A DNA stretch of 64,000 bases from an uncultured Nitrospiraceae bacterium. GTDB taxonomy: Bacteria > Nitrospirota > Thermodesulfovibrionia > Thermodesulfovibrionales > SM23-35. Made by a program: the position numbers and the translations under genes. The stretch is from positions 430,014-494,013 of the forward strand of contig CAVRAA010000009.1 of assembly GCA_963718855.1 (NCBI GenBank), written 5' to 3'. The stretch's first letter is position 1. Each line of letters begins with the position of its first letter. Positions 19,259-56,054 of the stretch are shown here, piece by piece. The notes under the pieces are model-generated. The model was not told where the DNA came from, ran no database searches, and saw only the letters and a list, made by a program, of their open reading frames with translations.

Positions 19259-19260
19259 TC

Positions 19261-27831: not shown

Positions 27832-27848
27832 CAATAATTTCACACTTC

Positions 27849-27881: not shown

Positions 27882-27888
27882 AGTATTA

Positions 27889-28581: not shown

Positions 28582-28592
28582 AAGGAGAAACG

Positions 28593-29864: not shown

Positions 29865-29886
29865 GAAATCAGAAAGGAGATTGAGA

Positions 29887-30461: not shown

Positions 30462-30779
30462 ATGGTAACTCTTAACGATAACCATGGGCAGAACATTCAA
30501 TGCCCATTCTGCAACTCCGAAGCCCTCTACAAATATGGAAAAATCAGGACAGGCAAGCAGCGTTATCTGTGTATCATGTGCGGGAAACAGTTCACTCCTT
30601 CAAGCCGGAGATGCATCGTGAAAAACAGACCTGTCTGCCCGGAATGCGGCGGATTAATGCATCTTTACAAAAGAGAAGGCGATACAGTGAGATTCAGGTG
30701 TGCATGCTATCCGAAATGCAGAACATATTTCAAGAAAATGGAAATACAGGAGGTCCCTCGTGAGCTATTACATGCATAA
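30462..30779 (+). CDS. double zinc-ribbon protein (IS1 InsA-like CxxC...CxxC ribbon + topoisomerase-type C4 ribbon)
   Basis: CPFCNS ... GKQRYLCIMCGKQF, then CPECGG ... FRCACYPKCRTYF. Confidence 0.55.
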   Translation: MVTLNDNHGQNIQCPFCNSEALYKYGKIRTGKQRYLCIMCGKQFTPSSRRCIVKNRPVCPECGGLMHLYKREGDTVRFRCACYPKCRTYFKKMEIQEVPRELLHA

Positions 30780-34720: not shown

Positions 34721-34813
34721 GTGGACCTCCGCAATAGTATCGATATTTAATGAAAACCCTGAGTCAAAAGCGCAGGGCCTCAATGCACAGGAAAAAGACC
34801 GTCGGAATATGTT

Positions 34814-34868
34814 GTAGCCGCGAACTTTAGTTTGCGCAGCATATACACAGGCGAAAGCCTGCGGCAAC
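34814..34868. repeat. third, inverted and degenerate copy of the gtagccgc...gcggctac REP
   Basis: gtagccgcgaactttagtttgcgcagcatatacacaggcgaaagcctgcggcaac. Confidence 0.5.
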
Positions 34869-34939
34869 CATCGTGACACAGCCTTCACGTCGGGCAACAC
34901 CATTCGTCTCCTGGAACGATTTTCCAGTGACGCGCTGTA

Positions 34940-39941: not shown

Positions 39942-42900
39942 TTACTGACAGTTTGCATCTCCAGCGTCTGCTGCGCCGTCGCAGTCATTGTCCAATGTGT
40001 CAGCGCATGTTGCATTGCCGACAGGGCCTTCTACGCCAGGCGTACCTGCCACACAGTTATTGGATGGAGCGCCGTTAGAGCAGGTGATAAGACCCGCCCT
40101 CTTGCATACTCCTACACCGCAGGTTGTCCTTACTGCCGCGATGCTCTCGTCTGTCGAGCCGTCACAGTCGTTATCCTGGCTGTCGCAGACTTCCGCTGAC
40201 GGCGTGCCAGGGGTACAGCTGTTGACCATCTGTCCGTTTGTGCAGGTTGACTGTCCTGATCTTACGCATGCGCCTACGCCGCAGGTTGTCGCTGTGGTGA
40301 GGCCATCGTCAACCGTGCCGTCACAGTCGTCGTCGATGCGGTTACAGGTTTCTGTGCCTGCTGGTTTCGGGGTGCAACTGTCGACCATCTGCCCGCCTGC
40401 ACAGGTTGCCGTGCCGCGCGCTACACATGCGCCTAAACCGCAGGTTGTCCTTACCGCCGCGATGCTCTCGTCTGTCGAGCCGTCGCAGTCATTGTCCTGA
40501 CCGTCGCAGACTTCCGCTGACGGTGAAGCCGGTGTGCAGGTATTGCCTCCCCATAGGCCTGCCGTGCAGGTTTCGGTTCCGGTCCTTGCGCAGCCGCCGA
40601 TACCACAGCTTGTCTGGCGAGTCACGCCATCGTCTACCTGTCCGTCGCAGTCGTCGTCAATGTTATTGCATGTCTCGGCTGCCGAGGCGCCCGGTGTACA
40701 GGTCTGGGCCATCGCTCCGCCGATACATTCATTGTAAGCAGCTCTCTTGCATGCGCCTTCACCGCAGGTTGTGCGGAGCATAACCGGCGCGATGCCTTCG
40801 TCTGTCTGTCCGTCACAGTCATTGTCAGCGCCGTCGCAGACTTCTTCTCCTGTAGGAATACAGGACACGATAGTGAGGCTGCCGTCTACCGATGTGCCGG
40901 GAATCTCATTGGCATTGACATCAACAAGTTCGCTGAAGGTAATATCCAGCAGAGTGCTGCCCAGGTTTGTTCCGGTTGTACATACAAGCTTTACTATGCT
41001 GCCGCTGCCCGCTCCGAGGCCGCTATTCGCCGGGTCATACCCTATAACGCTTATCTGTCCTGCAGACGGGTTGTCATCAAAAGACCACCCTGCGTTTAAC
41101 GAACCAGCGGCGGATGCTGTACAGTTGAGCATGGCAGGATTGTAGCTTACGGTAAACTGGAATGCAGCAACGCCTGCTGCATCACTAATGCTAATCGGGA
41201 TTTCGACCGGGATACCCGGAACATAGCTCACAGTGGGCGTTGAAATCAACCTTGGTTCTACACAGTCGATGTCAGAACCGTCTGCTGCGCCGTCGCAGTC
41301 GTTGTCGATTGAGTCACTGCAGGTCGCGTTTCCGAATGGCCCTTCTGTCTGCGGCGCGTTCGGCACACAGGTGCTGGCAAGCGCATGGTTCGGAAGCACG
41401 CATACCATCTCTCCCGTTGAAGCACATGCACCTACACCGCAGGTTGTCGGCGTCGGCACATAGTTTTCATCAGAGGTGCCGTTGCAGTTTTCGTCTACGT
41501 CGTCACAGTCGTTGTCGGTCCCTGTCGTGGCCCCCGGTGTGCAGTTATCCACCATCACGCCATTCTGGCAGGTTGACTGACCTGTTCTGGCACAAACACC
41601 GACGCCGCAATTTGTGGGGACAGTTGCGATTCCATCATCTACTGTTCCATTGCAATTATTGTCGATACCGTCGCAAACTTCAACGCCTGTCGGCGTACAG
41701 CTGTTGATCGTAACACTTCCGGCAGTTGCTGCACCGGGAATCACCTGTGCATTGACGTCTACAAGTTCACTGAATGTGATATTCATGGGTGTGCTGCTTC
41801 CATATGTACCGATAGCGGAACATACAAGCACAACCAGGCTTCCGCTGCCTGAAGCGATTCCATTATTTGACGGGTCGCTCCCTAAAACAGCTATCTGACC
41901 GGCAATCGGATTATCGTCAAAAGTCCATCCCGCTGTTAAAGCCCCGGTGCCTGCTGCTGTACAGTTGAGCACCGCAGGATCGTAGGTAACGGTGAACTGG
42001 AATGCCGCTATGCCGGTTGCATCGTCAACAGTGATCGGAATGTTGACTGCCGCGCCTCTGTCAGCAGATATCTCAGGGATATCAACTGCCCGAGGCTGAA
42101 CGCAGTTGACGTCTGCGCCGTCTGCTGCGCCGTCGCAATCGTTGTCGGTCGAGTCACCGCAGGTTGCATCACCAAACGGCCCTTCTGTCTGAGGAAGGTT
42201 CGGCCTGCAGGTGTCGGCAAGTGCATGGTTCGGCAGTACGCAGGCCATTTCACCGGTTGATGCACATGCGCCTACTCCGCAGGTTGTCGGAGTCGGCACA
42301 TAGTTTTCATCGGATGTGCCGTTGCAGTTTTCGTCTACGTCGTCACAGTCGTTGTCGGTCCCTGTCGTGGCGCCCGGTGTGCAGTTGTCCACCATCACTC
42401 CGCCCTGGCAGGTTGACTGTCCTGTTCTGGCGCAAACACCTGCGCCGCAGGTGGTCGGAACAGGTGCGATACCGTCATCGGCTGTGCCGTCGCAGTCATC
42501 GTCGATATTGTTGCATGTTTCTGTCGATGGGGTACCCGGTGTGCAGTTGTCCACCATCACGCCGCCCTGACAGGTTGATTCGCCTGTTGCAGCACATGCA
42601 CCCTGACCGCAATTGGTCGGGACTGCAGCGATTCCGTCATCCACCGTGCCGTCGCAGTCGTCATCAATGTTATTGCATATCTCTGTTGCGCCCGGATAAA
42701 CTGCATTGTTGTTATCATTGCAGTCAACTTCACCGCAAGCGCCGCCTTCGATGGCATACGTGTCATTATCAGCATCGGTACATGCGGAACCATTGACAGT
42801 AAATGTGCACCCACCGGTTATTGCAGGAATTGCTTCGTCTATGTACTCATCGCCGGTGTCCGGTGTTCCGTCCGGGTCTACCAGGAAGACAAAACCCTCC

Positions 42901-43322
42901 GGATACCCGCCTGCCATGCCCACTGGGGTGCTGCTTCCAGCGGTTCCCATGACAGTACAGGTAAATGTTGCGATGAGTCCGCTGCCCGGTGCGATGCCGA
43001 CACCGGTTCCATCGTTCAGCAGAATTCTGAAGTCGCCTGCCAGGTCACTGGTAGATATGCCAAATCCAGTGAACAGGCCCCCCCTTGTCGCTGCGGTACA
43101 ATCCAGCACTGCCTGATTAAAATTCAAACCGAGCTGAAGACCGGTCAGCGTGTCCGGCTCGCCGTCAAAATCCCATTCCCCGTAAACAGGGAATTGGACT
43201 GTCGCGCCCGGGTCTGCATTGGGCGGGCAGCCGTTTATCCACAGCTCGTTCGCCGCATACGCATTCGCTGAGAATACAAGAAGCAGGGCAAACAGTATCA
43301 AGAGTATTTTAGCCCTTTTCAT
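39942..43322 (-). CDS. secreted scaffoldin-like protein: three cohesin-like modules separated by MopE-type Cys-rich repeats
   Basis: Signal peptide. Cohesin-like blocks at about 43250-42780, 42100-41690 and 41270-40855 (AAFQFTVTYDPAVLNC...GSGSLVVLVC...). Between and after them lie CNNIDDDCDGTVDDGIA.VPT.CG.G.C..TG.STCQGG repeats. About one residue in ten is Cys. Confidence 0.65.
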   Translation of the reverse strand: MKRAKILLILFALLLVFSANAYAANELWINGCPPNADPGATVQFPVYGEWDFDGEPDTLTGLQLGLNFNQAVLDCTAATRGGLFTGFGISTSDLAGDFRILLNDGTGVGIAPGSGLIATFTCTVMGTAGSSTPVGMAGGYPEGFVFLVDPDGTPDTGDEYIDEAIPAITGGCTFTVNGSACTDADNDTYAIEGGACGEVDCNDNNNAVYPGATEICNNIDDDCDGTVDDGIAAVPTNCGQGACAATGESTCQGGVMVDNCTPGTPSTETCNNIDDDCDGTADDGIAPVPTTCGAGVCARTGQSTCQGGVMVDNCTPGATTGTDNDCDDVDENCNGTSDENYVPTPTTCGVGACASTGEMACVLPNHALADTCRPNLPQTEGPFGDATCGDSTDNDCDGAADGADVNCVQPRAVDIPEISADRGAAVNIPITVDDATGIAAFQFTVTYDPAVLNCTAAGTGALTAGWTFDDNPIAGQIAVLGSDPSNNGIASGSGSLVVLVCSAIGTYGSSTPMNITFSELVDVNAQVIPGAATAGSVTINSCTPTGVEVCDGIDNNCNGTVDDGIATVPTNCGVGVCARTGQSTCQNGVMVDNCTPGATTGTDNDCDDVDENCNGTSDENYVPTPTTCGVGACASTGEMVCVLPNHALASTCVPNAPQTEGPFGNATCSDSIDNDCDGAADGSDIDCVEPRLISTPTVSYVPGIPVEIPISISDAAGVAAFQFTVSYNPAMLNCTASAAGSLNAGWSFDDNPSAGQISVIGYDPANSGLGAGSGSIVKLVCTTGTNLGSTLLDITFSELVDVNANEIPGTSVDGSLTIVSCIPTGEEVCDGADNDCDGQTDEGIAPVMLRTTCGEGACKRAAYNECIGGAMAQTCTPGASAAETCNNIDDDCDGQVDDGVTRQTSCGIGGCARTGTETCTAGLWGGNTCTPASPSAEVCDGQDNDCDGSTDESIAAVRTTCGLGACVARGTATCAGGQMVDSCTPKPAGTETCNRIDDDCDGTVDDGLTTATTCGVGACVRSGQSTCTNGQMVNSCTPGTPSAEVCDSQDNDCDGSTDESIAAVRTTCGVGVCKRAGLITCSNGAPSNNCVAGTPGVEGPVGNATCADTLDNDCDGAADAGDANCQ

Positions 43323-43381: not shown

Positions 43382-44902
43382 TTATTCCAGACAGCATGTT
43401 ATTGTTGCGTCTTTGCCCAATGCGTAACGTGTTATCTTCGCAACATCTGTGGCGTTTACGACTCCACTATTGTTTGTATCCGCACATGACTGCACGGCAT
43501 CCTTGCCCAAAGCTATTCTTGTTGCTTTGGCTACGTCAGCGGCAGTAACCGCAGCATTATAGTTAAGATCTCCTACGAGCTGCTTTGCTGCGCCGAAAGA
43601 GGTCCAGCCATATGTCCAGTCATTGTCCGGGTCAACCGCGCCGATAAAGTCAACTGCTTCAAAGAAACCGTCTGCCGGAGGAGTTGCAACCGGGATTGTG
43701 CCGTTTGCAAGCGGTGAACTGGGCGCAGGCGCAAAGTTGGGCATATATTTTTGTGTTGTAGCAACAGCACCGTAAATGTCAATCGGCAGTGGATTGCAGA
43801 GCTGGCAATCAACCGTCTGAAGATTTGTCCATAATCCGGCGGTAATCGCATTCTGGGCAGCGGTATTGTATTGTGCAGCGCCGCCTTTGTTTCCGTAGAC
43901 GCAGCCGTTGCTTAATACTAAGTTTCCGGCATTGATCTGGTTGATTGTTTCCGTATCGTCGACTCTTACGCCGAAGTCTTTGAAGCCGGTAATAACAAAA
44001 TTCTTGATCGTGCCTGCGGTGCCGCGTCTCAGTCTCATGCCAAAGGTGCTTTCCGTTCCATAGGTCGTGTTCGGATCCCCGACAAAGGTCAAATTGTAGA
44101 TCGTGGGGTTTGAGCGCGGCGTATTAGTGTGTCCGAACTCATAGTTGTCAGCCTCTATGCCGGCGTCTGCCTCGTCTGCTCTCTGCGAAACGATAACAAA
44201 CTGGGCTTTACCCTGCCATCCCTCTGTCCAGTCAAAAGAGTCGTCACGACACCAGGTGCCGATCATGTACTTCATATTGACCGTGCCGCCGAACATCTCG
44301 ATGCAGTCATCCTTATTCATAAGCACCTGAACGTGGTCAACCGTCGTGCCATTGCCGACGCCATGGAAGGCGATGCCGTTCAGCTCGCTGGTTTCGGTGA
44401 ACAGATGGCCGGCATACTCAATGCGCACATACTGGAGATGCCCTGAGTTGTCTGCAGGGTCTGATCCACCATATAACCCGGTGGTTCCTTCGATACCGGC
44501 TTCACCGCCCGGAACATTAATCGGGGCATACCCGCCGATAATAACTCCGCCCCAGAGACCTCTGTCCAGGAGCCCGCCGAATTTTACTCTCGATGTGGTA
44601 AAAACAATCGGCTGTGATGAAGTGCCGATTGCATGGATCTTTGCCCCTCTTTCAACAACCAGGGTGCCGATAGTTGACTCGTCGCCGTAAATCTTTACTC
44701 CCGGCTGAATCGTAAGTTCAGCAGGCGCCTTAACAAAAACCGTGCCGCTCAGAAGATACTCGGTATCCGCCGGGGTGCCGGTCGGTCCCAATGTCGTATT
44801 CGTTGTGATGTCGCCGCCGATTGTGGTAATCGCCGACGCGGTGTTCAACGACATAAGGATTAACGACAATGCAATTAAAAATAATGTCCATCCCTTTCGC
44901 AT
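43382..44902 (-). CDS. secreted beta-helix-like protein with C-terminal dockerin-like duplicated Ca-binding loop
   Basis: Start moved to MRKGWTLFLIAL, after AAGGAGAGG. The C-terminus is GDLNYNAAVTAADVAKATRIALG ... ADTNNSGVVNATDVAKITRYALG, i.e. two DxNxNxxxxxxD-helix segments. Confidence 0.6.
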   Translation of the reverse strand: MRKGWTLFLIALSLILMSLNTASAITTIGGDITTNTTLGPTGTPADTEYLLSGTVFVKAPAELTIQPGVKIYGDESTIGTLVVERGAKIHAIGTSSQPIVFTTSRVKFGGLLDRGLWGGVIIGGYAPINVPGGEAGIEGTTGLYGGSDPADNSGHLQYVRIEYAGHLFTETSELNGIAFHGVGNGTTVDHVQVLMNKDDCIEMFGGTVNMKYMIGTWCRDDSFDWTEGWQGKAQFVIVSQRADEADAGIEADNYEFGHTNTPRSNPTIYNLTFVGDPNTTYGTESTFGMRLRRGTAGTIKNFVITGFKDFGVRVDDTETINQINAGNLVLSNGCVYGNKGGAAQYNTAAQNAITAGLWTNLQTVDCQLCNPLPIDIYGAVATTQKYMPNFAPAPSSPLANGTIPVATPPADGFFEAVDFIGAVDPDNDWTYGWTSFGAAKQLVGDLNYNAAVTAADVAKATRIALGKDAVQSCADTNNSGVVNATDVAKITRYALGKDATITCCLE

Positions 44903-45115
44903 TTTTTCCTCTCCTTCTTTTTTTAAAGGTTCATACATCGAAAGACCATCCCCAGGAAACATCGATACGCATCACCCCTCCTTTCTGATAAGCAGACCAG
45001 GAAACACATCACCCCCCTTCAAAGCATCTTCATTTATATATGGATAGACCGGACGCAGCCTGCTTCATCGTGCGGCAAACTGATTGAGACACCGCGCACG
45101 AAGTCTTTAAGGAAC

Positions 45116-45181
45116 ATGATACCCGGATGTCTTTACATGACGATGACACTATTGTGACAATCAGGTTATCGATTCATTACC
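45116..45181 (-). promoter_or_regulatory. Pho-box-like array of five half-sites on the minus strand (GGTAAT, GATAAC, TGTCAC, TGTCAT, TGTAAA) + TATCAT
   Basis: The plus-strand hexamers start at 45176, 45165, 45154, 45143 and 45132, exactly 11 bp apart. After 10 nt, the -10 lies at 45121-45116. Confidence 0.6.
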
Positions 45182-45283
45182 ATACCTCAGAGGCGCGTGA
45201 AGCGGCTTCAGATAAGGCGGGACAAGGATTGCCTGTAATTTTACGAAAGCAGATTTATCAGGAAGGAAGCAGATGTCATCGAA

Positions 45284-45327
45284 TTTAACACGACTGTAAC
45301 ATCCCTGTAACATGACTCTGTTATTTT
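45284..45327 (+). promoter_or_regulatory. Pho-box-like operator (TTTAAC, TGTAAC, TGTAAC in register) + TATTTT, facing the chaperone-usher genes
   Basis: Half-sites start at 45284, 45295 and 45306. -10 candidate at 45322-45327. Confidence 0.55.
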
Positions 45328-45393
45328 ATGGCGTCATGGCAATTCAGCTCATTGGGCACATCTCTATGCTGCCCGCTGAATCTGCAGACATTA

Positions 45394-45493
45394 CCCTCAC
45401 CCTTGCCCTCTCCCCTCAAGGGAGAGGGAACGTAAGAATGAGGGGAGGGGATTAAGGGGAACTCGTGAAGAACCCTGCGGCAGAGACCGCAGG
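45394..45493. repeat. composite of three REP types in the 5' leader of the chaperone gene
   Basis: ccctcacccttgccctctcccctcaagggagaggg (compare 8365-8401), gaggggaggggatt (KGGxGG-like) and gaagaaccctgcggcagagaccgcaggg (compare 6887-6913). Confidence 0.5.
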
Positions 45494-45529
45494 GCGTAAT
45501 ATTTATTAATATCTCAACGGAGGTGTACC

Positions 45530-46321
45530 GTGTATCGAAATTTTATGCTTGTAACGTTCACCATATTATTCTTTCTGATGCATTCCCATGCCGTTGCAGG
45601 CTCGTTTAAGGCTGTACCGGTGAGGCTCTTCGTGGATGTGAAATCCAATACTGCTGTCCTCAAGATTATCAATCAGGGGGATGACAGGGTAACGGTGCAG
45701 CTTGACGCCAGGAGTTGGCGGCAGGATGAAACCGGGCAGGACATGTATGAGGACACCGGAGACATCATCTTCTTTCCCAAGATCGCGCATATTGAAAAAA
45801 ACGAGGAGCGGATAATTCGCATAGGATACAAAGGAAAACAGGGATCTGTCGAAAAAACATACCGGTTATTCATGCAGGAACTGCCTGTCACCAAACCAGG
45901 CGGGATGGCGCTCCAGCTGGCCTTGACGATAACAATTCCCATTTTTGTAGAGCCGGAAAAAGAAGAGAAGGCGGGCTGGACCGCGGAGACCGCAGAATTC
46001 TCAGAGGAGACACTCAGGATAAAGGTCAGAAACAGCGGCAACAGGCACATCGTGGTCAGCAAGATCACGGCGGTCGGGCTCGATGAAGCCGGCAGGGAGG
46101 TATTCTCAAAAGATGCGGCCGGATGGTATACCCTCGCGCGTACGTCAAGAATATATGCCGTCCCGATACCGTATGAAGAATGCCTGAAGGTGACAACGAT
46201 CAAGGTGAAAACCGATCTGGAGAAAGACAGCAGGACCTTCACCCTGGATGTGGGTCAAGAGATGTGCACCCGGAAACCGGAGAGTGAAAAAAACAGAATA
46301 AAGGAGAAGGCATCGCATTAG
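45530..46321 (+). CDS. periplasmic pilus chaperone (PapD/CsuC-like)
   Basis: Signal peptide, then an Ig-like N-domain pattern (F.A.PVRLF.......AVLKI.N.GD..V.VQ) and YRLFMQELP. Confidence 0.8.
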   Translation: MYRNFMLVTFTILFFLMHSHAVAGSFKAVPVRLFVDVKSNTAVLKIINQGDDRVTVQLDARSWRQDETGQDMYEDTGDIIFFPKIAHIEKNEERIIRIGYKGKQGSVEKTYRLFMQELPVTKPGGMALQLALTITIPIFVEPEKEEKAGWTAETAEFSEETLRIKVRNSGNRHIVVSKITAVGLDEAGREVFSKDAAGWYTLARTSRIYAVPIPYEECLKVTTIKVKTDLEKDSRTFTLDVGQEMCTRKPESEKNRIKEKASH

Positions 46322-46367
46322 CAAAGGTCATGATTCCGAATTGCTATGCCAGAAAAAAAGACACATC

Positions 46368-48694
46368 ATGTCCAGGCGACTTATCGCGCTCCTGATCCTT
46401 CTCTGTTTTCATTCATATTCATACGGGTCGGAACGGGCCGTTATGAGGGTGTTCCTTAATAATCAGGAAAAAGGGGACTTCTTTTGCATCATGGCTGATG
46501 GAGGCAGACTGCTCTTTTCACCGGGAGATATGCTCGCAATAGGTTTACAAAGATACCCGAAGGGGCTGAAACCGGAGAGGATGGACATGTGTATCTCGAT
46601 TCCCTTTCTCCTGGGGTAACATTCGAACTGGACAAGAATGCATCTGCTATTTACATTATTGCAGAGCCTCGTTTGCTCAAAAAGAACACGGTCGATCTCT
46701 CCTATAAAAGAGAGGAAAGGGTGTTTCACGCAACAGACGCTTCAGTATTTTTCAATTACGGCCTTGCTTACACAGCCGGCAGCGATTTTGATTTCACCTC
46801 CATGACCATCCCGATGGAATTAGGCATTCGTACTGACGGCTATCTCGGCATCTCCAACTTCATGTACGACAAAAGCGACTACGACGAGAAGTTTGTAAGG
46901 CTTTTGACCAGTGTCATACGGGATGATACGGACAGGCTCAGACGATACACGATCGGAGATTTCTATGCCTTTTCCGGCCAGCTGGGGAGTGGGGCGATTT
47001 TAGGCGGACTCAGCGTAGCCAGAAATTTCTCGATGAGTCCTTTCTTTATCAGGCATCCCGGTCTGGACATCACCGGCATGTTGAATACGACCTCGGATGT
47101 CCGGATATACGCAAATGACATGCTCGTGAAGGACACGAAGCTAACGCCCGGGGAATTCGAATTTCTGAACATTCCCAACATCCATGGAGCAGGGGAAATC
47201 TCGTTTGTTGTCAGGGACGCCTTTGGGCGGGAAGAAACGCTTCCAATACCTTACTATATATCGACCGCGCTCCTGAAACCCGGCCTGCATGATTACAGCT
47301 ATAATCTCGGGTTCAAACGAAAGGAGTTCGGCCGCGAAAGTTTTGAGTATGATGAACCAGCCTTTCTCGGGTTCCACAGGGTCGGTTTTTCGCGAACGTT
47401 TACCGGAGGAGTCAGGGCAGAGTTCGACAAAAACTGCGTGAACGCGGGACCCACTGCAGGGTTTCTGCTCGGGGACCTCGGAGAACTCGACACCTCCCTT
47501 GCCCTGAGCAATGCCGATGGACGATTCGGATACGGATTTTCTGCAAACTATTCCTATGCGGGCAGACATTTCAGCGGACGAATCTTCATGAAGGGTCTCA
47601 GCAGGGATTACGCGAATCTTGTGGTATCCCACTCTGATGACAAACCGCGCTTCGAAAGCTGGGCCAGCCTCGGTTTCAATCACAACAGGTTCGGTTCAGT
47701 ATCTGTTGCCTACTCTGCCGCAGATCGTTACAAAGGGACAGATATCGAGAGGGCTTCACTCTTTTACCACAGAAGGGTCGTCAGGAATGTATCATTGGAC
47801 GTTATAGCCAGCAGGACAGACGCGGAGGACCGTACCTACGAGGTTTTTGCCGGACTGACGTTTATCCTCGGCAAAGACACCTCAGGGAATCTGGGCTACA
47901 GAGCGCAGGATGACGCTTCGATCATGACTGCAAGACTTCAGCAGAACCCGCCCCTTGACAGAGGCTTCGGCTACAGGGTAACCGTTGACAGGAGAGACAA
48001 CGACGAGGACACCTATCAGGACAACATTGAAACCGATGCAGATGGCTTCCTGCAGTACCGGGGTCCATACGGTGTCTATTCAGCGGAATACAGGAGAGCC
48101 GCTGGAGAGAATAGTTATACAGTCGGCACATCCGGCGGCCTTGTTTTTATCAAGAACTCTCTCCATTTCACAAGACCCGTCACCGACGGCTTTGCACTTG
48201 TCAAGGTAGGAGACTTCGAAAATGCCCATGTCTACTACAATAACCAGGAAGCAGGGACAACCGACAGAAACGGTGAGATCATTATCCCCAATCTCATATC
48301 ATACTATCCCAACAGCATCTCCATTAATGATACGGATTTCCCGGTCAACTACACAATCCCGGCAATCGAAAAACTCGTCACCATTCCGTTCAGGGGCGGC
48401 GGCGTAGTCACATTCGACATCCGAAAACTGCAGGCCTTTACAGGCCGGCTGTACATCGTGGAGAAAGATGCAAAAATTGAAGCTGAATACTGGGGATTGG
48501 ATATCCAGGCCGATGACCGCGCGGTGGAAGCTGTCGTAGGCAAGAAAGGTGAGTTTTACATGGAAAATATCGCTGCAGGCAGATACCCTGCACGGCTTTT
48601 CGCAGGAGAAAAGGAATGTATTTTTACCATAACAATACCGTCAAGCGACGAGGCCATGGTAGACATGGGGGAGGTCAGCTGTGAAATGCATTAG
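46368..48694 (+). CDS. outer-membrane pilus usher (CsuD-like), frame change near 46575-46590
   Basis: ORF 46341-46619 carries the signal peptide and N-terminal domain (MSRRLIALLILLC...). ORF 46589-48694 continues with YLDSLSPGVTFELD and a ~700-aa barrel. The two are in different frames. Confidence 0.8.
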
Positions 48695-49130
48695 TGTTCT
48701 CGTTATAGTGTTTGCGTTAATTGTGGCCGCAGCGGCACAGGGCGAAGCATGCTCTATTACAACCTCACCTGCCCATTTCGGGAATTATGATCCGACGGCA
48801 TCCGCGCCTCTCGATACGGTTGGGAATATCAGCGTAACCTGTGATTCCGGCACCCCGTTCACCATAAAATTGGATTCAGGGCAGAATTCGACTGGAGGGT
48901 TTGACAGACAGATGCGCTCTTCGGCAGGTGATTTCTCGCTCGATTACAACCTCTTCAGAGATTCTGCCCGCACAGAAGTCTGGGGGGACGGCACCGGCAG
49001 CACCTTCATCCAGGCAGGCGTCGGTACCGGAATACCAGCCCAGTTCAATCTCTACGGCCGCATTTCCGGACGACAGAATGTCAAGGCAGATATCTATAAT
49101 GATTCGATCATCGTAACGGTGGAATGGTGA
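48681..49130 (+). CDS. spore-coat-U (SCPU) domain pilin subunit
   Basis: ACSITTSPAHFGNYD ... ISVTCDSGTPFTIKLDSG ... DYNLFRDSARTEVWG ... YNDSIIVTVEW. Confidence 0.85.
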   Translation: MKCISVLVIVFALIVAAAAQGEACSITTSPAHFGNYDPTASAPLDTVGNISVTCDSGTPFTIKLDSGQNSTGGFDRQMRSSAGDFSLDYNLFRDSARTEVWGDGTGSTFIQAGVGTGIPAQFNLYGRISGRQNVKADIYNDSIIVTVEW

Positions 49131-49200: not shown

Positions 49201-49254
49201 TTAACAAAATATTAACCCGATCTTCATAACCACGTAACAAAAATAATGTAAGTT
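49201..49254 (+). promoter_or_regulatory. weaker Pho-box-like array (TTAACA, TTAACC, ..., CGTAAC) upstream of the atypical regulator
   Basis: TAAC cores end at 49205, 49216 and 49238 (offsets 11 and 22). TAAGTT lies 10 nt after the last. Confidence 0.35.
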
Positions 49255-49346
49255 ATCCGGCATGCTGTCAGAATCTTTGAAAGAAAACGGCTTATTGTGC
49301 GCTGGGATTCATACATCCTGTAGTGATAGGGGAAGCGTTTTTTTCT

Positions 49347-50087
49347 ATGGCTAAAGCAACCTATATCCTGCTTCTGAGTGATAACCCGCATACGGCAAAA
49401 AACCTCACCGGTACATTGGCCAGGGAGGGTTTTATTGTTGATACAGTTGCCGATGCTGAAAACGTCCTCTCAAGCATAAAAAAGAGGACGTATGATCTGA
49501 TAGTGCTGAATCCGGTGTCGCTCGGGATGAAGGGCCTGGACCTCTGCCGCACCCTGAAAAATGACACGCAAACAGCAAAAATACCGATTATCGTCATCGC
49601 TGTCACCAAAGATGAAGTCGACACAGTGCTCAGTCTCGAAATCGGCGCCGATGATTATATGACCGAACCGGTGAATATCAAGGAACTGGCAGCAAGGATA
49701 AACGCAGTAATGAGAAGAACACGGACAAAGGTGACTGATATGAAGATTCTGCAGAGAGGAGAAATTGTCATAGACACGGAAAAATGCGCAGTGCGAAAAA
49801 ACGGCAGGAAAATTGTATTAACTGCTCAGGCCTACAAACTATTATGCTTCCTTGCAGAAAGCCAGGGGAAGGTATTCAGCCGTGAACAGCTCCGGGATGA
49901 GGTCTGGAACCGGACCACCTTCGTCGGATTGAGAACGATTGACGTGCATATAAGAAAATTGAGAGAAAAACTGGAGCAAAGCCCTTCGCATCCTGAATAT
50001 ATTAAGACATTCCGTGGCATCGGATATTTCTTTGATCGTGGTCAGCCCTCTCAAAAAGACGATGAATCGCAGAATACGCTGCAATAA
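49347..50087 (+). CDS. OmpR/PhoB-family regulator with degenerate (non-phosphorylatable) receiver domain
   Basis: Aligned by eye to the PhoB at 22307: DD becomes SD, phospho-Asp ILDLMLPG becomes VLNPVSLG, T becomes A, and SKPF becomes TEPV. The winged helix is conserved (RTIDVHIRKLR ... FRGIGYFF). Confidence 0.8.
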   Translation: MAKATYILLLSDNPHTAKNLTGTLAREGFIVDTVADAENVLSSIKKRTYDLIVLNPVSLGMKGLDLCRTLKNDTQTAKIPIIVIAVTKDEVDTVLSLEIGADDYMTEPVNIKELAARINAVMRRTRTKVTDMKILQRGEIVIDTEKCAVRKNGRKIVLTAQAYKLLCFLAESQGKVFSREQLRDEVWNRTTFVGLRTIDVHIRKLREKLEQSPSHPEYIKTFRGIGYFFDRGQPSQKDDESQNTLQ

Positions 50088-50098
50088 ATTTACACAAT

Positions 50099-50142
50099 TG
50101 TAATATTCATTTCACAATCCTGCAATAAATTGCCTTTAGACT
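50099..50142 (+). promoter_or_regulatory. Pho-box-like operator (TGTAAT, TTTCAC, TGCAAT in register) + TAGACT
   Basis: Half-sites start at 50099, 50110 and 50121. -10 candidate at 50137-50142. Confidence 0.45.
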
Positions 50143-50184: not shown

Positions 50185-51673
50185 ATGATGAAAACAGTGA
50201 GGACATTTTTGATAATTTTCGCCCTGCTGCTCATGTCAGCGAATGCGTTTGCAGCAACCGTTTCTATTCCGGGTACATATGCAGATGCAAGTGCGCCTGT
50301 GCAACTCCCAATTAATGCACAGTGGGATTTCGCGCTGACCGCATTTCAATTTACCATTACTTACAACCCGTCGGTGCTCACTTGCACCGGAGCATCATTA
50401 GGAGATGTATTATCGGCAGCCGGAGGATGGTCTGTCAGTGTGAATACCCTTTCAGGTCAGATAGGCGTATTAGGGAATGATGCAAATGGAATCGGCATCT
50501 CACCAGGTAGTGGAAATCTCGTAAAACTTCAGTGCACCGTTGTCGGGAACGAGGGCGACAGCACATCCCTTCAATTCACGGGCACAAACGTATTGGTTGA
50601 TACTGATATAAACGAGTATGTGCCTGCAACCACTGCGGGAATACTCACAATTGGCGCATGCGTACCCTCGGAAGAACGATGCGACAGGCTGGACAATGAC
50701 TGCGATGGGCAGGTGGATGAGGAGATTGCCCCTGTGCCGACCACCTGCGGCATTGGTGCATGCTCAACTACCGGCCAAGCAACCTGTCAAAATGGTCAGC
50801 TGGTTGACAGCTGCCGACCTCCTGCTGAGGGGCCTTTTGGCGATCCGACATGCGACGATCTGGCGGATAATGACTGCAACGGATTTACCGATAGTAACGA
50901 TCCGAACTGCATTGAATGTGTCCCCTCCGAAGAACTATGCGACGGGCTGGACAATGACTGCGACGGTCAGGTGGATGAGGAGATTGCCCCTGTGCCGACC
51001 ACCTGCGGCGTTGGTGTGTGCTCCTCAGGAGGCCAGTTAATCTGCGACGGGGGACAGATGATTGATACCTGCACCCCGGGCATGCCGCAGGCTGAAGGAC
51101 CTTCCGGAAGCAGAACGTGCAGTGACAGCCAGGGACAATGACTGCGATGGTTCCATTGATTCTTCCGATCCCGGCTGCCTCGTGCAGCCAACAGGAATGG
51201 ACCGCTGGGTCGGGAAATGGTTCAGCATTAAAAGGACAATGAAGGGCAGCGCTTTTCGCGCGACTGATTCAAAATTTTTAACGGACAAAAGCAGCGGGAG
51301 TGGCTATCTATACATCTGGGGATGGGACCTGAATGCCGAACTATTGCGATTTGATTACTATGAATTCATGGAATACGACGATATCTGGCATGTGAACACC
51401 GACGCTTTTCACTTCTTTGCCGGCACTGATGACAAATTCCTCTTCTGGTACAACAGTGCAGATGCCACCTCTGAAGCAGGATTAAACGGATTGATCGACG
51501 GAAAGGTGAAAGACGGAGAATTGCAGAGCGCCAGCATCAAGACATTAGGTGGTCTGTATCTCGATGTCAGTGACGATTATACCCGTTACTCCGCCGGCGA
51601 ACAGACGCTGAACGGAAGGATGATCGATGCGTCGAAAGTACCGGTGCCATTCAGCGTAATAATACCGCGATGA
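50185..51673 (+). CDS. secreted cohesin-like + Cys-rich-repeat protein with conserved C-terminal domain; 1-nt frame change near 51130-51135
   Basis: ORF 50185-51141 ends ...TCSDSQGQ*. Removing one G from caGGGac gives TCSDSQDNDCDGSIDSSDPGC, which continues into ORF 51062-51673. Confidence 0.65.
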
Positions 51674-51722
51674 ACGATAAATACAATTTATCCAACAAAA
51701 GCATATATTGTGTGGAGGGAGC

Positions 51723-54700
51723 ATGAAAATAACTAAAATAGCATTGATTCTGTTCATTTTATTGGTAGGTTCAGCCCAAGGATTTGGAGCAAGTGTCTCA
51801 ATCTCCAACAGTGCTGCAGACGCAGGTGCAGCCGTCCAGATTCCCATTAACGGCAGTTTTGATTTTCCGCTGACATCGTGCCAGTTCACAATCACGTACA
51901 ATCCTTCCGTGCTGAATTGCACTGGTGCAGTATCAGGAGACTTAACAGGCGGTTGGACAGTTTCTACAAATGCATTGACAGGCGAGATGAGAGTGCTTGT
52001 GAACGATGGAACCGGAAATGGTATTGCTCCAGGAAGCGGTAATCTGGTTAAGCTCAATTGCACTGCTGCCAGCAATCCCGGGGCCTCCACCCCCGTAACA
52101 TTTAGCGGGGTAAATGTGTTAGTGGACATAGACATAAACGAATACATTCCTACAACAACGCCGGGAACCTTTACGATCAATGGCGGTTGCATCCCTACAA
52201 CCGAAGTATGCGATGGAGTAGACAATGACTGCGATGGCCAGATTGACGAGGGCGTAAAGAACACCTATTATCGCGATGTCGATAACGACACCTTCGGTAA
52301 CCCCAACGATACAACCCAGGCTTGCACCATTCCCCAGGGCTATGTCTCCAACAATACCGACTGCAATGACAGCAACCATGCAGTAAAGCCCGGTGCGACA
52401 GAAACCTGTAACAATATCGATGACAACTGTGATAGCACAATCGACAATGGCATCGCATCAACACCAACCACCTGTGGTGTAGGCTTTTGTGCCTCAACAG
52501 GCCAGTCGGCCTGCCAAGGAGGCCAGATGGTGGATACCTGCACTCCGGGGACTCCGCAGACAGAAGGACCCTTCGGCAACGCTACCTGCTCGGACTCATC
52601 AGACAACGACTGTGACGGTGCAACCGATGCGGCTGATTCAGGATGCATACAGCAGTGCGTGCCCTCGACCGAAGTATGCGACGGTGTGGACAATGACTGC
52701 GACCAGCAGACGGATGAAGGCATCGCTGCTGTGCCGACTACCTGCGGAATAGGCGCTTGTCAGAGGTTAGGACAGAGCACCTGCCAGTCCGGCGAGATGG
52801 TTGACAGTTGTACCCCGGGCACCTTGTCATCAGAAACCTGCAATGGTATTGACGACGATTGTGACGGAACAGTTGATGATGGGGTAAAAAACACCTATTA
52901 CCGCGACGCTGATAATGACACTTTTGGAAACCTCAATAATACAACACAGGCTTGCACTCTGCCCCAGGGCTATGTCTCCAACAATACCGACTGCAATGAC
53001 AGCAACCCTGCAGTAAAGCCCGGTGCGACAGAAACCTGTAACAATATCGATGACAATTGCGATGGCCAGACTGATAACGGGATCGCGTCAACACCGACCT
53101 CCTGTGGAACAGGCGCTTGTGCCTCAACCGGCCAGTCAATCTGCCAGGGTGGCCAGATAATCAATACCTGCACATCGGGTAACCCTCAGACTGAAGGGCC
53201 CTTTGGGAATGCCACCTGTTCGGACTCCTCGGATAACGACTGTGACGGCACAACTGATGCGGCTGATTCAGGATGTGTGGAGGTCTGCACTCCTTCCACC
53301 GAAGTCTGTGACGGTGTGGATAATGACTGTGATGATCAAGTAGATGAAGGGGTAAAAAACACTTATTACCGCGACGCTGATAATGACACCTTTGGAAACC
53401 CTAATGATACAACGCAGGCATGTACCCTTCCGCAGGGCTATGTTTCCAATAACACCGACTGCAATGACAGCAACCCTGCGGTAAAACCCGGTGCAATAGA
53501 AACCTGTGACAGCGTAGACAATAATTGCGATGGCCAGACAGACAACGGCATCGCTTCTGTACCGACCACCTGCGGCGTAGGCGCATGTGCTTCTGCAGGC
53601 CAGTCAATCTGCCAGGGTGGCCAGATGGTCGATACCTGCAAATCAGGGAACCCTCAGACTGAAGGGCCCTTTGGGAATGCGACCTGTTCGGACTCAACGG
53701 ATAACGACTGTGACGGCTCGACCGATGCATCTGATTCAGGGTGCGCTCAACAGTGTACTCCTTCTACTGAAGTATGTGATGGCGTAGACAACGACTGTGA
53801 CAGTCAGATTGATGAGGACATCGCTGCTGTGCCGACTACCTGCGGCGTAGGCGCTTGTGCTGCAAATGGCCAGAGCACCTGTCAGGCCGGACAAATGGTT
53901 AACAGTTGCATTCCGGGGACTCCTCAGGCCGAGGGTCCGTTCAGCAATGCTACCTGCTCGGATTCATCAGATAATGACTGTGATGGCTCAACTGACACTG
54001 CCGATTCAGGATGCGTTCAGCAGTGCACTCCTTCCACAGAGGTCTGCGATGGGGCAGATAACGACTGTGACGGTCAGATTGATGAAGACATCGCTGCTGT
54101 ACCGACCACCTGCGGCGTAGGCGCATGTGCTTCTACAGGCCAGTCAGTCTGCCAGGGTGGTCAGATGATCAATACCTGCACACCAAGTAACCCTCAGACT
54201 GAAGGGCCGTTTGGCAATCCGACCTGTGCAGACTCCTCGGATAACGACTGTGACGGCACAACCGATGCATCTGATTCAGGATGTGTTGAGGTCTGCACTC
54301 CTTCTACTGAAGTATGTGATGGCGTAGACAACGACTGTGACGGTCAGATTGATGAAGACATCGCTTCTGTACCGACGACCTGCGGCGCAGGCGCTTGTGC
54401 TTCTGCAGGCCAATCAATCTGCCAAGGGGGCCAGATGGTCAATACCTGCACCCCGGGTGACCCTCAGACTGAAGGTCCGTTTGGTAATCCGACCTGTTCG
54501 GACTTATCCGACAACGACTGCGATGGTGCAGTTGACACGGCTGATTCTGGATGTGTAGAGGTCTGCGCTCCTTCCACCGAAGTCTGTGACGGTCTGGATA
54601 ATGACTGTGATGGCCAAGTTGATGACGACATCGCTGCCGTACCGACCACCTGTGGAGTGGGCATCTGTGCTGCAAATGGCCAGAGCACCTGTCAGGCCGG

Positions 54701-56054
54701 ACAAATGGTTAACAGTTGCATTCCGGGGACTCCTCAGACCGAGGGTCCGTTCGGCAATCCGACCTGCTCGGATTCATCAGATAATGACTGTGATGGCTCA
54801 AGCGATGCATCTGATTCAGGATGCGGTCAGCAGTGCACTCCTTCCACAGAGATCTGCGATGGGATAGACAATGACTGTGACAGTCAGATTGATGAAGACA
54901 TCGCTGCCGCGCCGACTACCTGCGGCGTAGGCGCTTGTGCTTCTACAGGCCAATCAATCTGCCAGGGTGCCCAGATGGTCAATACCTGCACACCGGGTAA
55001 CCCTCAGACTGAAGGTCCGTTTGGTAATCCGACCTGTTCGGATTCATCAGATAATGACTGTGACGGCTCGACCGACGCATCTGATTCAGGATGCGTTCAG
55101 CAGTGCACTCCTTCCACAGAGGTTTGCGATGGGGTAGATAACAACTGTGACGGTCAGATTGACGAGGATATTGCTGTTGTGCCGACAACCTGTGGGGTAG
55201 GCGCTTGCACTGCAAATGGCCAGAGCACCTGTCAGGCCGGACAAATGGTTAACAGTTGCATTCCGGGCACTCCGTCACCGGAAATATGTAACACTATCGA
55301 TGACAATTGCGACGGCACGGTCGATAACGGCGTCGCATCGACTCCGACGACCTGCGGGATAGGCGCCTGTGCTTCTACCGGCCAGATGGTCTGCCAGTCC
55401 GGCCAAATGGTTGACACCTGCACTCCGGGCGCTCCCCAGACAGAAGGGCCGTTGGGCAACCCCACCTGCTCGGATTCCGCTGACAACGACTGCGACGGCT
55501 CAACCGATGCATCTGATTCCGGATGTTTGATTCAACCGGCTGATATGAGTCAATGGACCGGAAAATGGTTCAGCATCAAGGAACGGGGGTCTCAGACTGC
55601 CGGTCGGTCGGGTCAGCAGGGGATTACCTTTAGTGTGCCTGACGCCAAGTTCGGGAAAGAGAAAAACAGCGGGAGCGGAAATGGATATATGCACATCTGG
55701 AACTGGGACCCCGGCACCAGGGCACTGCATTTCGATTACTATACCTTTATCGAAGATAAAGGCACATGGGATACCTACACCGATACTCTACAGTTTTTTG
55801 CAGGAACGGATATGAAATTTTTGTTCCTTTACCATAGATCCCATAACAATCAGGTAACCGCTTTTAACGGGGAGATTGAAGGTAAGATAAAAAAGGGAGC
55901 GTTACAAGGCGCAACTCTTAAAACATTCGGCGGATATTACTTGGATATCAGTGACGACGAAACCTCTTACTCCGCTGGGAACGAAGCCATGACCGGAAAA
56001 ATGATTGATGCATCGAAGGTGCCGGTGCCGTTCAATGTAATAATACCGCGCTAA
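51723..56054 (+). CDS. giant secreted protein: N-terminal cohesin-like module, about 1,100 aa of MopE-type / DNDCDG Cys-rich repeats, conserved C-terminal domain
   Basis: Start moved to MKITKIALILF, after GGAGGGA. Contains YYRD.DNDTFGN...DCNDSNPAVKPGA.E.C units and six consecutive 90-aa units. The C-terminus is shared with 50185-51673 (ends VPVPFNVIIPR). Confidence 0.7.
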   Translation: MKITKIALILFILLVGSAQGFGASVSISNSAADAGAAVQIPINGSFDFPLTSCQFTITYNPSVLNCTGAVSGDLTGGWTVSTNALTGEMRVLVNDGTGNGIAPGSGNLVKLNCTAASNPGASTPVTFSGVNVLVDIDINEYIPTTTPGTFTINGGCIPTTEVCDGVDNDCDGQIDEGVKNTYYRDVDNDTFGNPNDTTQACTIPQGYVSNNTDCNDSNHAVKPGATETCNNIDDNCDSTIDNGIASTPTTCGVGFCASTGQSACQGGQMVDTCTPGTPQTEGPFGNATCSDSSDNDCDGATDAADSGCIQQCVPSTEVCDGVDNDCDQQTDEGIAAVPTTCGIGACQRLGQSTCQSGEMVDSCTPGTLSSETCNGIDDDCDGTVDDGVKNTYYRDADNDTFGNLNNTTQACTLPQGYVSNNTDCNDSNPAVKPGATETCNNIDDNCDGQTDNGIASTPTSCGTGACASTGQSICQGGQIINTCTSGNPQTEGPFGNATCSDSSDNDCDGTTDAADSGCVEVCTPSTEVCDGVDNDCDDQVDEGVKNTYYRDADNDTFGNPNDTTQACTLPQGYVSNNTDCNDSNPAVKPGAIETCDSVDNNCDGQTDNGIASVPTTCGVGACASAGQSICQGGQMVDTCKSGNPQTEGPFGNATCSDSTDNDCDGSTDASDSGCAQQCTPSTEVCDGVDNDCDSQIDEDIAAVPTTCGVGACAANGQSTCQAGQMVNSCIPGTPQAEGPFSNATCSDSSDNDCDGSTDTADSGCVQQCTPSTEVCDGADNDCDGQIDEDIAAVPTTCGVGACASTGQSVCQGGQMINTCTPSNPQTEGPFGNPTCADSSDNDCDGTTDASDSGCVEVCTPSTEVCDGVDNDCDGQIDEDIASVPTTCGAGACASAGQSICQGGQMVNTCTPGDPQTEGPFGNPTCSDLSDNDCDGAVDTADSGCVEVCAPSTEVCDGLDNDCDGQVDDDIAAVPTTCGVGICAANGQSTCQAGQMVNSCIPGTPQTEGPFGNPTCSDSSDNDCDGSSDASDSGCGQQCTPSTEICDGIDNDCDSQIDEDIAAAPTTCGVGACASTGQSICQGAQMVNTCTPGNPQTEGPFGNPTCSDSSDNDCDGSTDASDSGCVQQCTPSTEVCDGVDNNCDGQIDEDIAVVPTTCGVGACTANGQSTCQAGQMVNSCIPGTPSPEICNTIDDNCDGTVDNGVASTPTTCGIGACASTGQMVCQSGQMVDTCTPGAPQTEGPLGNPTCSDSADNDCDGSTDASDSGCLIQPADMSQWTGKWFSIKERGSQTAGRSGQQGITFSVPDAKFGKEKNSGSGNGYMHIWNWDPGTRALHFDYYTFIEDKGTWDTYTDTLQFFAGTDMKFLFLYHRSHNNQVTAFNGEIEGKIKKGALQGATLKTFGGYYLDISDDETSYSAGNEAMTGKMIDASKVPVPFNVIIPR
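53750..55370 (+). repeat. six consecutive ~270-bp (90-aa) coding tandem repeats inside the giant gene
   Basis: The 50-mer ggccagagcacctgtcaggccggacaaatggttaacagttgcattccggg recurs starting at 53868, 54678 and 55218. The offsets of 810 and 540 are multiples of 270. Confidence 0.7.

Follow-up and report, generated by a model that had tools for sequence, protein, structure and literature searches.

Back-to-back 11-bp-phased arrays as probable Pho boxes between divergent cohesin/dockerin and chaperone-usher operons of an uncultured Nitrospirota bacterium

In Escherichia coli, the PHO box consists of two 11-nt units with seven conserved and four less conserved bases, and its core is CTGTCAT (PMC4415409). 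Pho boxes lie 10 bp upstream of a −10 element of the form TAN3T/A, and those of the cyanobacterial PhoB protein SphR comprise at least three tandem repeats with the consensus CTTAACCT (PMC1906773). Two arrays of hexameric half-sites spaced at 11 bp stand back to back in a 64,000-nt stretch of DNA from an uncultured Nitrospiraceae bacterium (contig CAVRAA010000009.1, positions 430,014 to 494,013; hereafter “the window”, with coordinates counted from its first nucleotide). They occupy the control region between a leftward dockerin/cohesin operon and a rightward chaperone-usher pilus operon. The favoured reading, with a probability of roughly 0.78, is that the arrays serve as Pho boxes for a back-to-back pair of independent PhoB-dependent promoters.

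Several other described systems are relevant to this locus. The operators of WalR/YycF and Bacillus PhoP are TGTWAH-N5-TGTWAH and TT(A/T/C)ACA repeats, respectively. The Acinetobacter csu operon, which encodes an archaic chaperone-usher SCPU pilus, is under the control of the OmpR-family regulator BfmR, and the OmpR-family regulators HP1043, ChxR, GlnR and JadR1 lack the phospho-acceptor aspartate. Non-cellulosomal cohesin/dockerin systems, like archaic SCPU pili, are to our knowledge widespread and of largely unknown function. A literature search found no paper on a Pho box in Nitrospirae/Nitrospirota, and the sole paper uniting cohesin, dockerin and phosphate starvation was an unrelated Clostridium thermocellum transcriptome. 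The elements of the divergent control region are as follows.

45116–45121, minus strand: predicted −10 hexamer TATCAT of the dockerin/cohesin operon promoter, 10 bp past the last half-site.
45132–45170, minus strand: predicted Pho-box array of four half-sites (GATAAC, TGTCAC, TGTCAT, TGTAAA) in 11-bp phase, equivalent to two PhoB-dimer sites.
45176–45181, minus strand: fifth, distal hexamer GGTAAT, in phase; found in the window and its close relative L090 only.
45284–45311, plus strand: predicted Pho-box array of three half-sites, supported by matrix score and orthologous columns.
45322–45327, plus strand: predicted −10 hexamer TATTTT of the chaperone-usher operon promoter, 10 bp past the last half-site.

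Direct reading of 44900–45700 confirmed all the hexamers, the 11-bp phasing, the 10-nt gaps and the positions of TATCAT and TATTTT that a first-pass annotation of this DNA had reported. On the minus strand, GGTAAT (45176–45181), GATAAC (45165–45170), TGTCAC (45154–45159), TGTCAT (45143–45148) and TGTAAA (45132–45137) have low-coordinate starts at 45176, 45165, 45154, 45143 and 45132, an exact 11-bp phase, and a 10-nt spacer separates TGTAAA from TATCAT at 45116–45121. On the plus strand, TTTAAC (45284–45289) and two copies of TGTAAC (45295–45300 and 45306–45311) are likewise in exact 11-bp phase, and the last is followed by a 10-nt spacer and TATTTT at 45322–45327. A possible fourth plus-strand site, TGTCAT at 45274–45279, lies 10 bp upstream rather than 11 bp. 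The same annotation had counted five sites on the minus strand; all five are in phase, but only four are conserved, and this array is the weaker motif match. The two arrays thus share the features of PhoB-dependent promoters: at least two direct repeats at 11 bp with a conserved core and a variable remainder, replacement of the −35 element, and TAnnnT at 10 bp.

Chance is excluded as the origin of this class of 11-bp-phased arrays. Same-strand TGT[AC]A[CT] hexamers occur 11 bp apart six times in the window, and between zero and three times at any other spacing up to 60 bp. A loose half-site pattern gave 10 chains of at least three sites at period 11 and zero to three at the other periods from 6 to 20, while 200 dinucleotide shuffles gave 0.37 ± 0.59 period-11 chains. 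Since the loose pattern had been shaped by the sites of these arrays themselves, the window was retested with a stricter one, [TC][GT]T[AC]A[CTA], which leaves out GGTAAT and GATAAC and reduces the minus-strand chain to its three proximal sites. The strict pattern gave nine chains of at least three sites at period 11 and none at periods 8–10 or 12–14, with 0.033 chains per shuffle in 300 shuffles. TAnnnT lies exactly 10 bp downstream of seven of the nine strict chains, including both arrays of the divergent region; this combination was seen in none of the 300 shuffles. An unbiased repeat finder grouped eight arrays, including 45280–45310, as one 31-nt family (D14).

How closely the two arrays match the motif of the lineage was assessed with position weight matrices (PWMs). 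The training set of the first PWM held orthologs of the same promoters (from L090, L091 and others), which inflated the scores, 46.4 and 28.5 bits for the two arrays. The training set of an independent PWM comprised 17 promoters from the vicinity of phoB in other genomes and left out the orthologs of both divergent promoters. With this matrix, the plus-strand array scores 31.0 bits for the sites only and 37.5 bits with the −10, against shuffle maxima of 17.9 and 19.9, and it matches the lineage motif strongly. On the minus strand, the array is a divergent, weaker, E. coli-like TGTCA variant of the lineage Pho box. Its support comes from its phasing, its −10 geometry and its phylogenetic footprint, and mainly from its conservation, rather than from closeness to the consensus.

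The footprint of the minus-strand array comes from an alignment of the beta-helix promoters of the window and four relatives (L001, L002, L003 and L004; protein identity 63–72%). The four half-site positions and the −10 are kept in all five loci, the latter as TATCAT, TAACAT or GATAAT at the same distance, and the spacers and the 10-bp gap diverge. The fifth site, GGTAAT, could not be aligned in L001–L004 and is kept only in the closest relative, L090; its function is doubtful. The chaperone promoters were aligned for the window, L090, L006, L007 and L092 (protein identity 64–82%). Their invariant columns are TTAAC, TGTAA and CCTGTAACA, and the −10 TA...T lies at the same distance from the array in all four relatives. 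L090 has the same divergent layout, with both arrays near-identical to those of the window. Across 30 related promoters, information content is high at the T.TAAC columns and low in the spacers, and the lineage consensus is approximately tTTAAC-N5-TTTAAC-N5-TGTAAT-N5-TGTAAC. This pattern bears on the suggestion that the arrays are functionless, being either A/T-rich sequence that is periodic by chance or remnants of a mobile promoter cassette or dispersed repeat. The repeat finder did group the arrays as a dispersed family, and the minus-strand array is a borderline PWM match. However, conservation is confined to the half-site cores and the −10, whereas spacers and flanks vary between copies as well as between orthologs, and every array inspected lies upstream of, and is aimed at, an open reading frame (ORF; at 63793 the window ends first). 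With the strict pattern, moreover, chains occurred only at period 11 among periods 8–14, and an array with its −10 was never reproduced in the shuffles. Lack of function is largely refuted by these observations and is scarcely credible.

Midway between the two arrays, at 45198–45211, lies a perfect palindrome, TGAAGC-G-GCTTCA, that is kept in L090 and may be a site for another regulator. A search of the divergent control region against Rfam found nothing at the gathering threshold.

The arrays are taken to be the Pho boxes of this lineage because the same arrays precede pstS, phoX, psiE, phosphoesterase and porin genes in related Nitrospirota. In L004, TGTAAC-TTTAAC-TGTAAC-TGTAAC is followed after 10 bp by TATTGT directly upstream of pstSCA. 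In three Nitrospirota metagenome-assembled genomes (MAGs; L019, L021 and L035), arrays with a −10 precede PstS-family genes, the products of which are PBP_like_2 proteins. Arrays with a −10 also precede psiE, phoX, a cohesin gene and a beta-helix homolog in L003, and arrays precede a calcineurin-type phosphoesterase gene in L032 and a MopE-repeat protein gene in L029. The porin gene after phoR has an array in L010, L014 and L017 as well as in the window, and L012 has an array at the porin-array position with no downstream ORF called. In several related genomes, arrays precede phoB itself, and homologs of the beta-helix and cohesin genes are found elsewhere within such Pho islands. In the window, arrays also stand before PHP, LMWPc phosphatase and TonB-receptor operons. 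PWM scans of the 64-kb window found about 14 Pho-box-type promoters, with a clear score gap below them.

11051 (plus strand) and 56680 (minus strand): predicted Pho-box promoters of two low-molecular-weight (LMW) phosphatase paralogs, one each.
24835, plus strand: predicted Pho-box promoter of the porin gene.
27835, plus strand: predicted Pho-box promoter of the PHP and GT21 glycosyltransferase genes.
29818, 30116 and 30409, plus strand: predicted Pho-box promoters of three small Cys-rich or zinc-ribbon ORFs.
37910, minus strand: predicted Pho-box promoter of the TonB-ExbBD-receptor operon.
39001, minus strand: predicted Pho-box promoter of the gene for a 160-amino-acid protein.
45162, minus strand: predicted Pho-box promoter of the beta-helix/dockerin and cohesin operon.
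45281, plus strand: predicted Pho-box promoter of the chaperone-usher operon.
49208–49254, plus strand: predicted Pho-box promoter directly upstream of an operon-internal regulator gene, RR2.
50096–50142, plus strand: predicted Pho-box promoter of the cohesin/MopE genes at 50185 and 51708; member of repeat family D14.
63793, plus strand: predicted Pho-box promoter; the window ends before the downstream gene.

The RR2 promoter scores 35.9 bits with the first PWM and, with the independent one, 25.2 (sites 2–4 only) and 26.2 (with the −10); the promoter at 50096–50142 has a PWM score of 31.1. Conserved counterparts of both promoters (49208 and 50096) occur in L006 and L092 (that of 50096–50142 in L092), and the arrays orthologous to that of RR2 lie at 4886–4929 in L006 and 4813–4856 in L092. 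Together, the roughly 14 promoters in the window and the conserved promoters of the locus suggest that the cohesin/dockerin/pilus locus is embedded in, and wired into, a phosphate-starvation island.

Several of the other promoters have features of their own. At the LMWPc paralog promoters (11051–11106 on the plus strand, 56680–56625 on the minus strand), the −10 hexamers TATAGT and TATTCT lie only 6 nt before the ATG, so that the mRNAs would be leaderless; an LMWPc gene adjoins the beta-helix homolog in L002 and L004. The ORFs at 29863–30084, 30183–30416 and 30462–30779 are consecutive, each with its own predicted Pho-box promoter, and encode two Cys-rich proteins (73 and 77 amino acids) and a 105-amino-acid InsA-like zinc-ribbon protein; a similar zinc-ribbon gene adjoins the PHP gene in L003. 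At 27835–29811, a Pho box is followed by the PHP phosphoesterase and GT21 glycosyltransferase genes, a pairing that would fit phosphate-sparing remodelling of membrane lipids. AAAGT-rich short tandem repeats with a period of 7/14 nt (GTTAAAAGT / GTGAAAAGT; D15) occur at 2580–2629, 4628–4677 and 24502–24551, with one site near transfer RNA genes and one in the 3′ end of the kinase gene; they cause the period-7 chains of the loose pattern.

A candidate regulator and its partner kinase are encoded in the window.

22307–23005, plus strand: canonical PhoB-like regulator; best NCBIfam match PhoB.
23005–24792, plus strand: PhoR/PnpS-like kinase; NCBIfam PnpS.

This pair is divergent from the PhoU_div and Pit genes and is followed by the porin gene with its four-site array at 24827–24865. 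The regulator has the full set of receiver residues and conserved DNA-contact residues, as expected of a PhoB ortholog; its recognition helix reads RTVDVHVRRLR, compared with RTVDVHIRRLR in E. coli PhoB. Its 90% cluster is named PhoB by JGI, the phosphate regulator RegX3 is its best relative of solved structure, and its closest relatives (67–81% identity) are PhoB proteins from Nitrospirota/Thermodesulfovibrionia MAGs, which places the source organism in that lineage. A contig scan with PhoB as the query found relatives; the scan with the chaperone as the query found none. The kinase matches PnpS with 401 bits, the cut-off being 400. Canonical PhoB (22307–23005) is, on this evidence, most likely the regulator of both arrays, in which case coordinate activation would mean induction on phosphate starvation. 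The resemblance of TGTAAC-N5-TGTAAC to the WalR consensus, TGT(A/T)A(A/T/C)-N5-TGT(A/T)A(A/T/C), which is closer than its resemblance to E. coli CTGTCAT, raises the alternative that the arrays belong to another OmpR-family regulon with TGTAAC-type repeats, such as a WalR/OmpR-like envelope regulon, and are unrelated to phosphate. The kinase also matches WalK with 369.6 bits, well under the 725-bit cut-off of that model. However, this kinase passes the Pho-type PnpS cut-off, the regulator-kinase pair adjoins Pit and PhoU_div genes, and the motif lies upstream of pstS, phoX, psiE, phosphoesterase and LMW phosphatase genes, making such a regulon very unlikely.

If PhoB is the regulator, the following mechanism can be proposed. 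When phosphate is scarce, the kinase (23005–24792) would phosphorylate PhoB (22307–23005), and head-to-tail PhoB dimers would fill the 11-bp-phased half-sites, two per dimer; the minus-strand array would probably take two dimers and the plus-strand array one and a half to two. The −35 position, 10 bp before TAnnnT, would be occupied by the promoter-proximal half-site, allowing PhoB to recruit the sigma-70 holoenzyme. Transcription would then enter the beta-helix-dockerin and cohesin genes to the left and the chaperone-usher-SCPU pilus genes to the right, and three more such promoters (38955, 49254 and 50142) would add the pilin, regulator and cohesin genes that remain. The entire surface-assembly locus would in this way be part of the phosphate-starvation regulon. 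We infer PhoB binding, activation rather than repression, the transcription start sites and the phosphate signal from sequence. Coordinate activation of the two operons by PhoB/OmpR-type half-site arrays, as proposed by the first-pass annotation, finds support in the array geometry, the approximately 14 promoters of the window, the hallmark Pho genes and the conservation in orthologous loci.

Several observations weigh against assigning both arrays to PhoB. With the independent PWM, the minus-strand array is borderline, scoring 12.8 bits for the sites only and 16.5 with the −10, where the 95th percentiles of the shuffles are 16.0 and 13.7, respectively. The match of the 22307 protein to PhoB, 273.6 bits, is just under the NCBIfam equivalog cut-off of 296.2. 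No array was found in the intergenic region between the window’s own phoB and the pit-phoU_div genes (22201–22306), and the association of arrays with pst genes comes from related genomes only. Lastly, the operon itself encodes another regulator, whose recognition helix is near-identical and which could be the true binder or an additional one.

49323–50087, plus strand: RR2, an atypical orphan regulator of the OmpR/PhoB family, from Pfam, receiver and clade alignments.

Two PhoB-type regulators had been named as candidate binders from the outset, and both are present, but the operon-internal RR2 lacks the phospho-acceptor aspartate. In its receiver, this Asp is replaced by Asn, the conserved Thr by Ala and the conserved Lys by Glu, and its winged helix is intact (Trans_reg_C, 93 bits), a combination that places RR2 among the atypical regulators. 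No kinase gene is adjacent. The phospho-acceptor Asp is absent from all 12 members of the RR2 clade (0/12), where Asn, Ser or Lys takes its place, and the clade has lost the conserved Thr and Lys as well. RR2 orthologs are found at 5055–5753 in L006 and 4918–5625 in L092, and the clade always lies within a chaperone-usher-SCPU-RR-cohesin operon, behind its own Pho box. The recognition helix of the clade, RT[IV]DVHIRKLR, has one Arg-to-Lys change relative to PhoB, the wing arginine is PhoB-like, and the nearest relatives of RR2 beyond its own clade are Nitrospirota PhoBs (47–50% identity). RR2 may bind the same boxes as PhoB. The loop before the recognition helix has no acidic residues in RR2, reading VWNRTTFVGL where the PhoB clade has VWRDEAFVEP. 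This acidic loop contacts sigma-70 in E. coli PhoB.

In principle, the arrays of the locus could be bound mainly or only by RR2, acting as a local, phosphorylation-independent activator or brake, with PhoB involved at most indirectly via RR2. The PhoB-like recognition helix and wing arginine, the kinship with Nitrospirota PhoBs and the conservation of RR2 inside the operon in L006, L007 and L092 are all compatible with this, and its position behind its own conserved Pho-box promoter fits a cascade. The same motif nevertheless precedes pstS, phoX and psiE in contigs or genomes where no RR2 was seen nearby, and the array is retained at the beta-helix homologs of L002, L003 and L004, none of which has RR2 next to it. 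Moreover, no sequence feature sets the arrays of the locus apart from those of classical Pho genes, and the loss of the acidic loop residues argues against RR2 as an activator. Exclusive or predominant control by RR2 is therefore unlikely, and PhoB remains the preferred regulator. A tentative proposal, less likely than not, is a two-tier circuit in which RR2 also binds the arrays of PhoB: phosphorylated PhoB would fire first and make RR2, which would then either lock the surface genes on or compete with PhoB to cap or shut off their expression. If true, this circuit would be a phosphorylation-independent memory or brake built onto a classical Pho promoter, and the RR2 layer would control a non-cellulosomal cohesin-dockerin-pilus surface machine with a job tied to phosphate scavenging.

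The genes and leaders flanking the control region are listed below. Pfam matches agree with the operons described in the first-pass annotation, dockerin/beta-helix and cohesin on one side and PapD chaperone, usher and SCPU on the other.

39942–43322, minus strand: second operon gene, a 1126-amino-acid scaffold protein with cohesin domains and MopE-type Cys-rich repeats (Pfam).
43382–44902, minus strand: first operon gene, a beta-helix protein with a C-terminal type I dockerin (Pfam Dockerin_1; PF28492 Beta_helix_4 by database annotation).
44903–45109, minus strand: predicted 5′ leader of the beta-helix/dockerin gene, about 205 nt.
45334–45529, plus strand: predicted 5′ leader of the chaperone-usher operon, about 195 nt.
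45394–45508, plus strand: inserted GC-rich, REP/MITE-like hairpin block in the leader (REP, repetitive extragenic palindrome; MITE, miniature inverted-repeat transposable element), with inverted repeats; absent from four orthologous leaders.
45530–46321, plus strand: PapD-like chaperone (Pfam).
46589–48694, plus strand: usher (Pfam).
48681–49130, plus strand: SCPU-domain pilin (Pfam).

The dockerin gene most likely starts at ATG 44902, rather than at the first ATG of the ORF (44962), because the database protein P0001 begins there, the ribosome-binding site (RBS) AAGGAGAGG directly precedes this ATG, and the start context, AAAAAATG followed by [A/C]GAAA, is kept in all homologous loci. The AlphaFold2 model of the protein is confident (predicted local distance difference test score 89) and shows a right-handed beta-helix. 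Foldseek searches of the Protein Data Bank (PDB) with this model returned only weak, generic matches to pectate lyases, (alginate) epimerases and phage tailspikes (E > 1e-3, template modelling scores 0.2–0.3), and a PDB sequence search matched the dockerin module only. A phosphatase-like role for this dockerin cargo was considered, and no such assignment is possible from these matches. Homologs of the protein number more than 2000 matches and often lie within Pho islands. The MopE-type repeat arrays of the cohesin proteins (39942–43322 on the minus strand, 50185–51141 and 51708–56054 on the plus strand) are 270-bp and 162-bp tandem repeats at the DNA level (D1–D12).

Within the beta-helix/dockerin leader, a stem-loop at 45056–45082 (minus strand; CAGTTTGC...GCAGGCTG) is conserved in five loci, with nine pairs, several G-U changes and one compensatory change, and is followed by two GGGGGTGAT(A/G)TG-like blocks. 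The stem-loop matched no Rfam family and may be a cis-regulatory RNA.

Rightward of the control region, the gene order is chaperone, usher, SCPU pilin, OmpR/PhoB-family regulator and two further cohesin/MopE proteins; the chaperone-usher-SCPU order is the same in L006, L007 and L092. By its domain content, the segment from 45530 to 49130, encoding chaperone, usher and SCPU pilin, is assigned as an archaic (Csu-type) chaperone-usher pilus operon. The RBS and start of the chaperone gene, AACGGAGGTG..GTG (45530), are invariant in five loci. The leader upstream is strongly structured (−79.9 kcal/mol, z = −3.9). A small ORF or small RNA in this leader was considered and rejected, the sole ORF beginning inside the −10 hexamer.

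The leader had been described as REP-laden, with a possible post-transcriptional layer of control. The hairpins do exist within 45394–45494, as inverted repeats or imperfect palindromes: a composite CCCTCTCCC/GGGAGAGGG hairpin occupies 45394–45450 and a terminator-like hairpin 45473–45494. However, alignment shows that the block at 45394–45508 is an insertion of about 115 nt that is absent from the orthologous leaders of L090, L006, L007 and L092, and only its first module (40 nt) recurs in the window, in one other copy at 8364–8402; the third and last hairpin is unique within the window. ATTA is found on both flanks of the insertion (45390–45508), and this pair may be its target-site duplication. 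Against Rfam, the leader hairpins gave only sub-threshold noise at E ≤ 1 and no family. A megablast of the region against E. coli genomes gave no match, so the source is no enterobacterium even though the hairpins look REP-like. The most plausible reading of the block is a REP/MITE-like insertion peculiar to this genome, where it could attenuate or stabilise the transcript. Since it is missing from the four orthologous leaders, a post-transcriptional layer does not belong to the conserved system. A 63-nt hairpin-forming dispersed repeat, D18, occurs at 19258–19320, 20522–20584 and 34811–34873 and is a better candidate than the leader hairpins for the true REP element of this genome.

If the assignment to the Pho regulon is correct, a shortage of phosphate prompts an uncultured Nitrospirota bacterium to build its cohesin/dockerin and pilus surface machinery. 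The placement of the whole cohesin/dockerin-pilus locus behind at least five predicted Pho-box promoters provides a testable physiological cue, phosphate starvation, and would link the locus to neighbouring phosphate-scavenging genes: those for the porin, the TonB-dependent receptor, PHP and the LMW phosphatases in the window, and PhoX and PsiE in relatives. The work also offers a usable Pho-box model for Nitrospirota/Thermodesulfovibrionia, from which regulons could be predicted straight from MAGs. Mechanistically the arrays follow the textbook, and the surprise is limited accordingly. The novelty is in the content of the regulon, namely cohesin/dockerin genes, pili of the archaic chaperone-usher type and a conserved paralog of PhoB without the phospho-acceptor aspartate, and the interest lies in this paralog and in the physiology inferred.

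Comparison with the closest described systems shows where the locus follows precedent and where it departs from it. Like the E. coli PhoB promoters of pstS, phoA and ugpB, the arrays are 11-nt direct repeats with at least two boxes, a replaced −35 element and TAnnnT at 10 bp; the minus-strand array holds the E. coli core TGTCA[CT], and the window’s regulator keeps the recognition-helix residues of PhoB. The lineage consensus, however, is (C)TGTAAC / TTTAAC / CTTCAT instead of CTGTCAT, the host is an uncultured Nitrospirota bacterium, and cohesin/dockerin genes and SCPU pili are not known as members of the Pho regulon. The cyanobacterial SphR boxes resemble those of the window in having three to four repeats as a rule, and many window half-sites (CTTAAC, CTTAAT, TTTAAC) carry the cyanobacterial core, but the promoter-proximal site in the window is usually TGTAAC, the phylum is different and the window boxes are predicted from sequence. 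Half-sites of this lineage combine the E. coli core (TGTCA) with the cyanobacterial one (CTTAAC). WalR/YycF and Bacillus PhoP share the hexamer repeats at 11 bp, an RTVDVHIRRLR-type helix and a half-site near-identical to TGTAAC, whereas the context in the window is phosphate-related rather than cell-wall-related. As in the Acinetobacter csu/BfmR system, an archaic SCPU-type pilus appears to be placed under an OmpR/PhoB-family regulator; here, in contrast, the predicted signal is phosphate starvation, the pilus is coupled to cohesin/dockerin genes, and the regulator within the operon lacks the phospho-acceptor aspartate. In this last respect RR2 and the 11 other members of its clade, without the Asp, Thr and Lys and with an intact winged helix, resemble HP1043, ChxR, GlnR and JadR1, but differ from them in that RR2 is a recent PhoB paralog located behind a Pho box within a pilus/cohesin operon.

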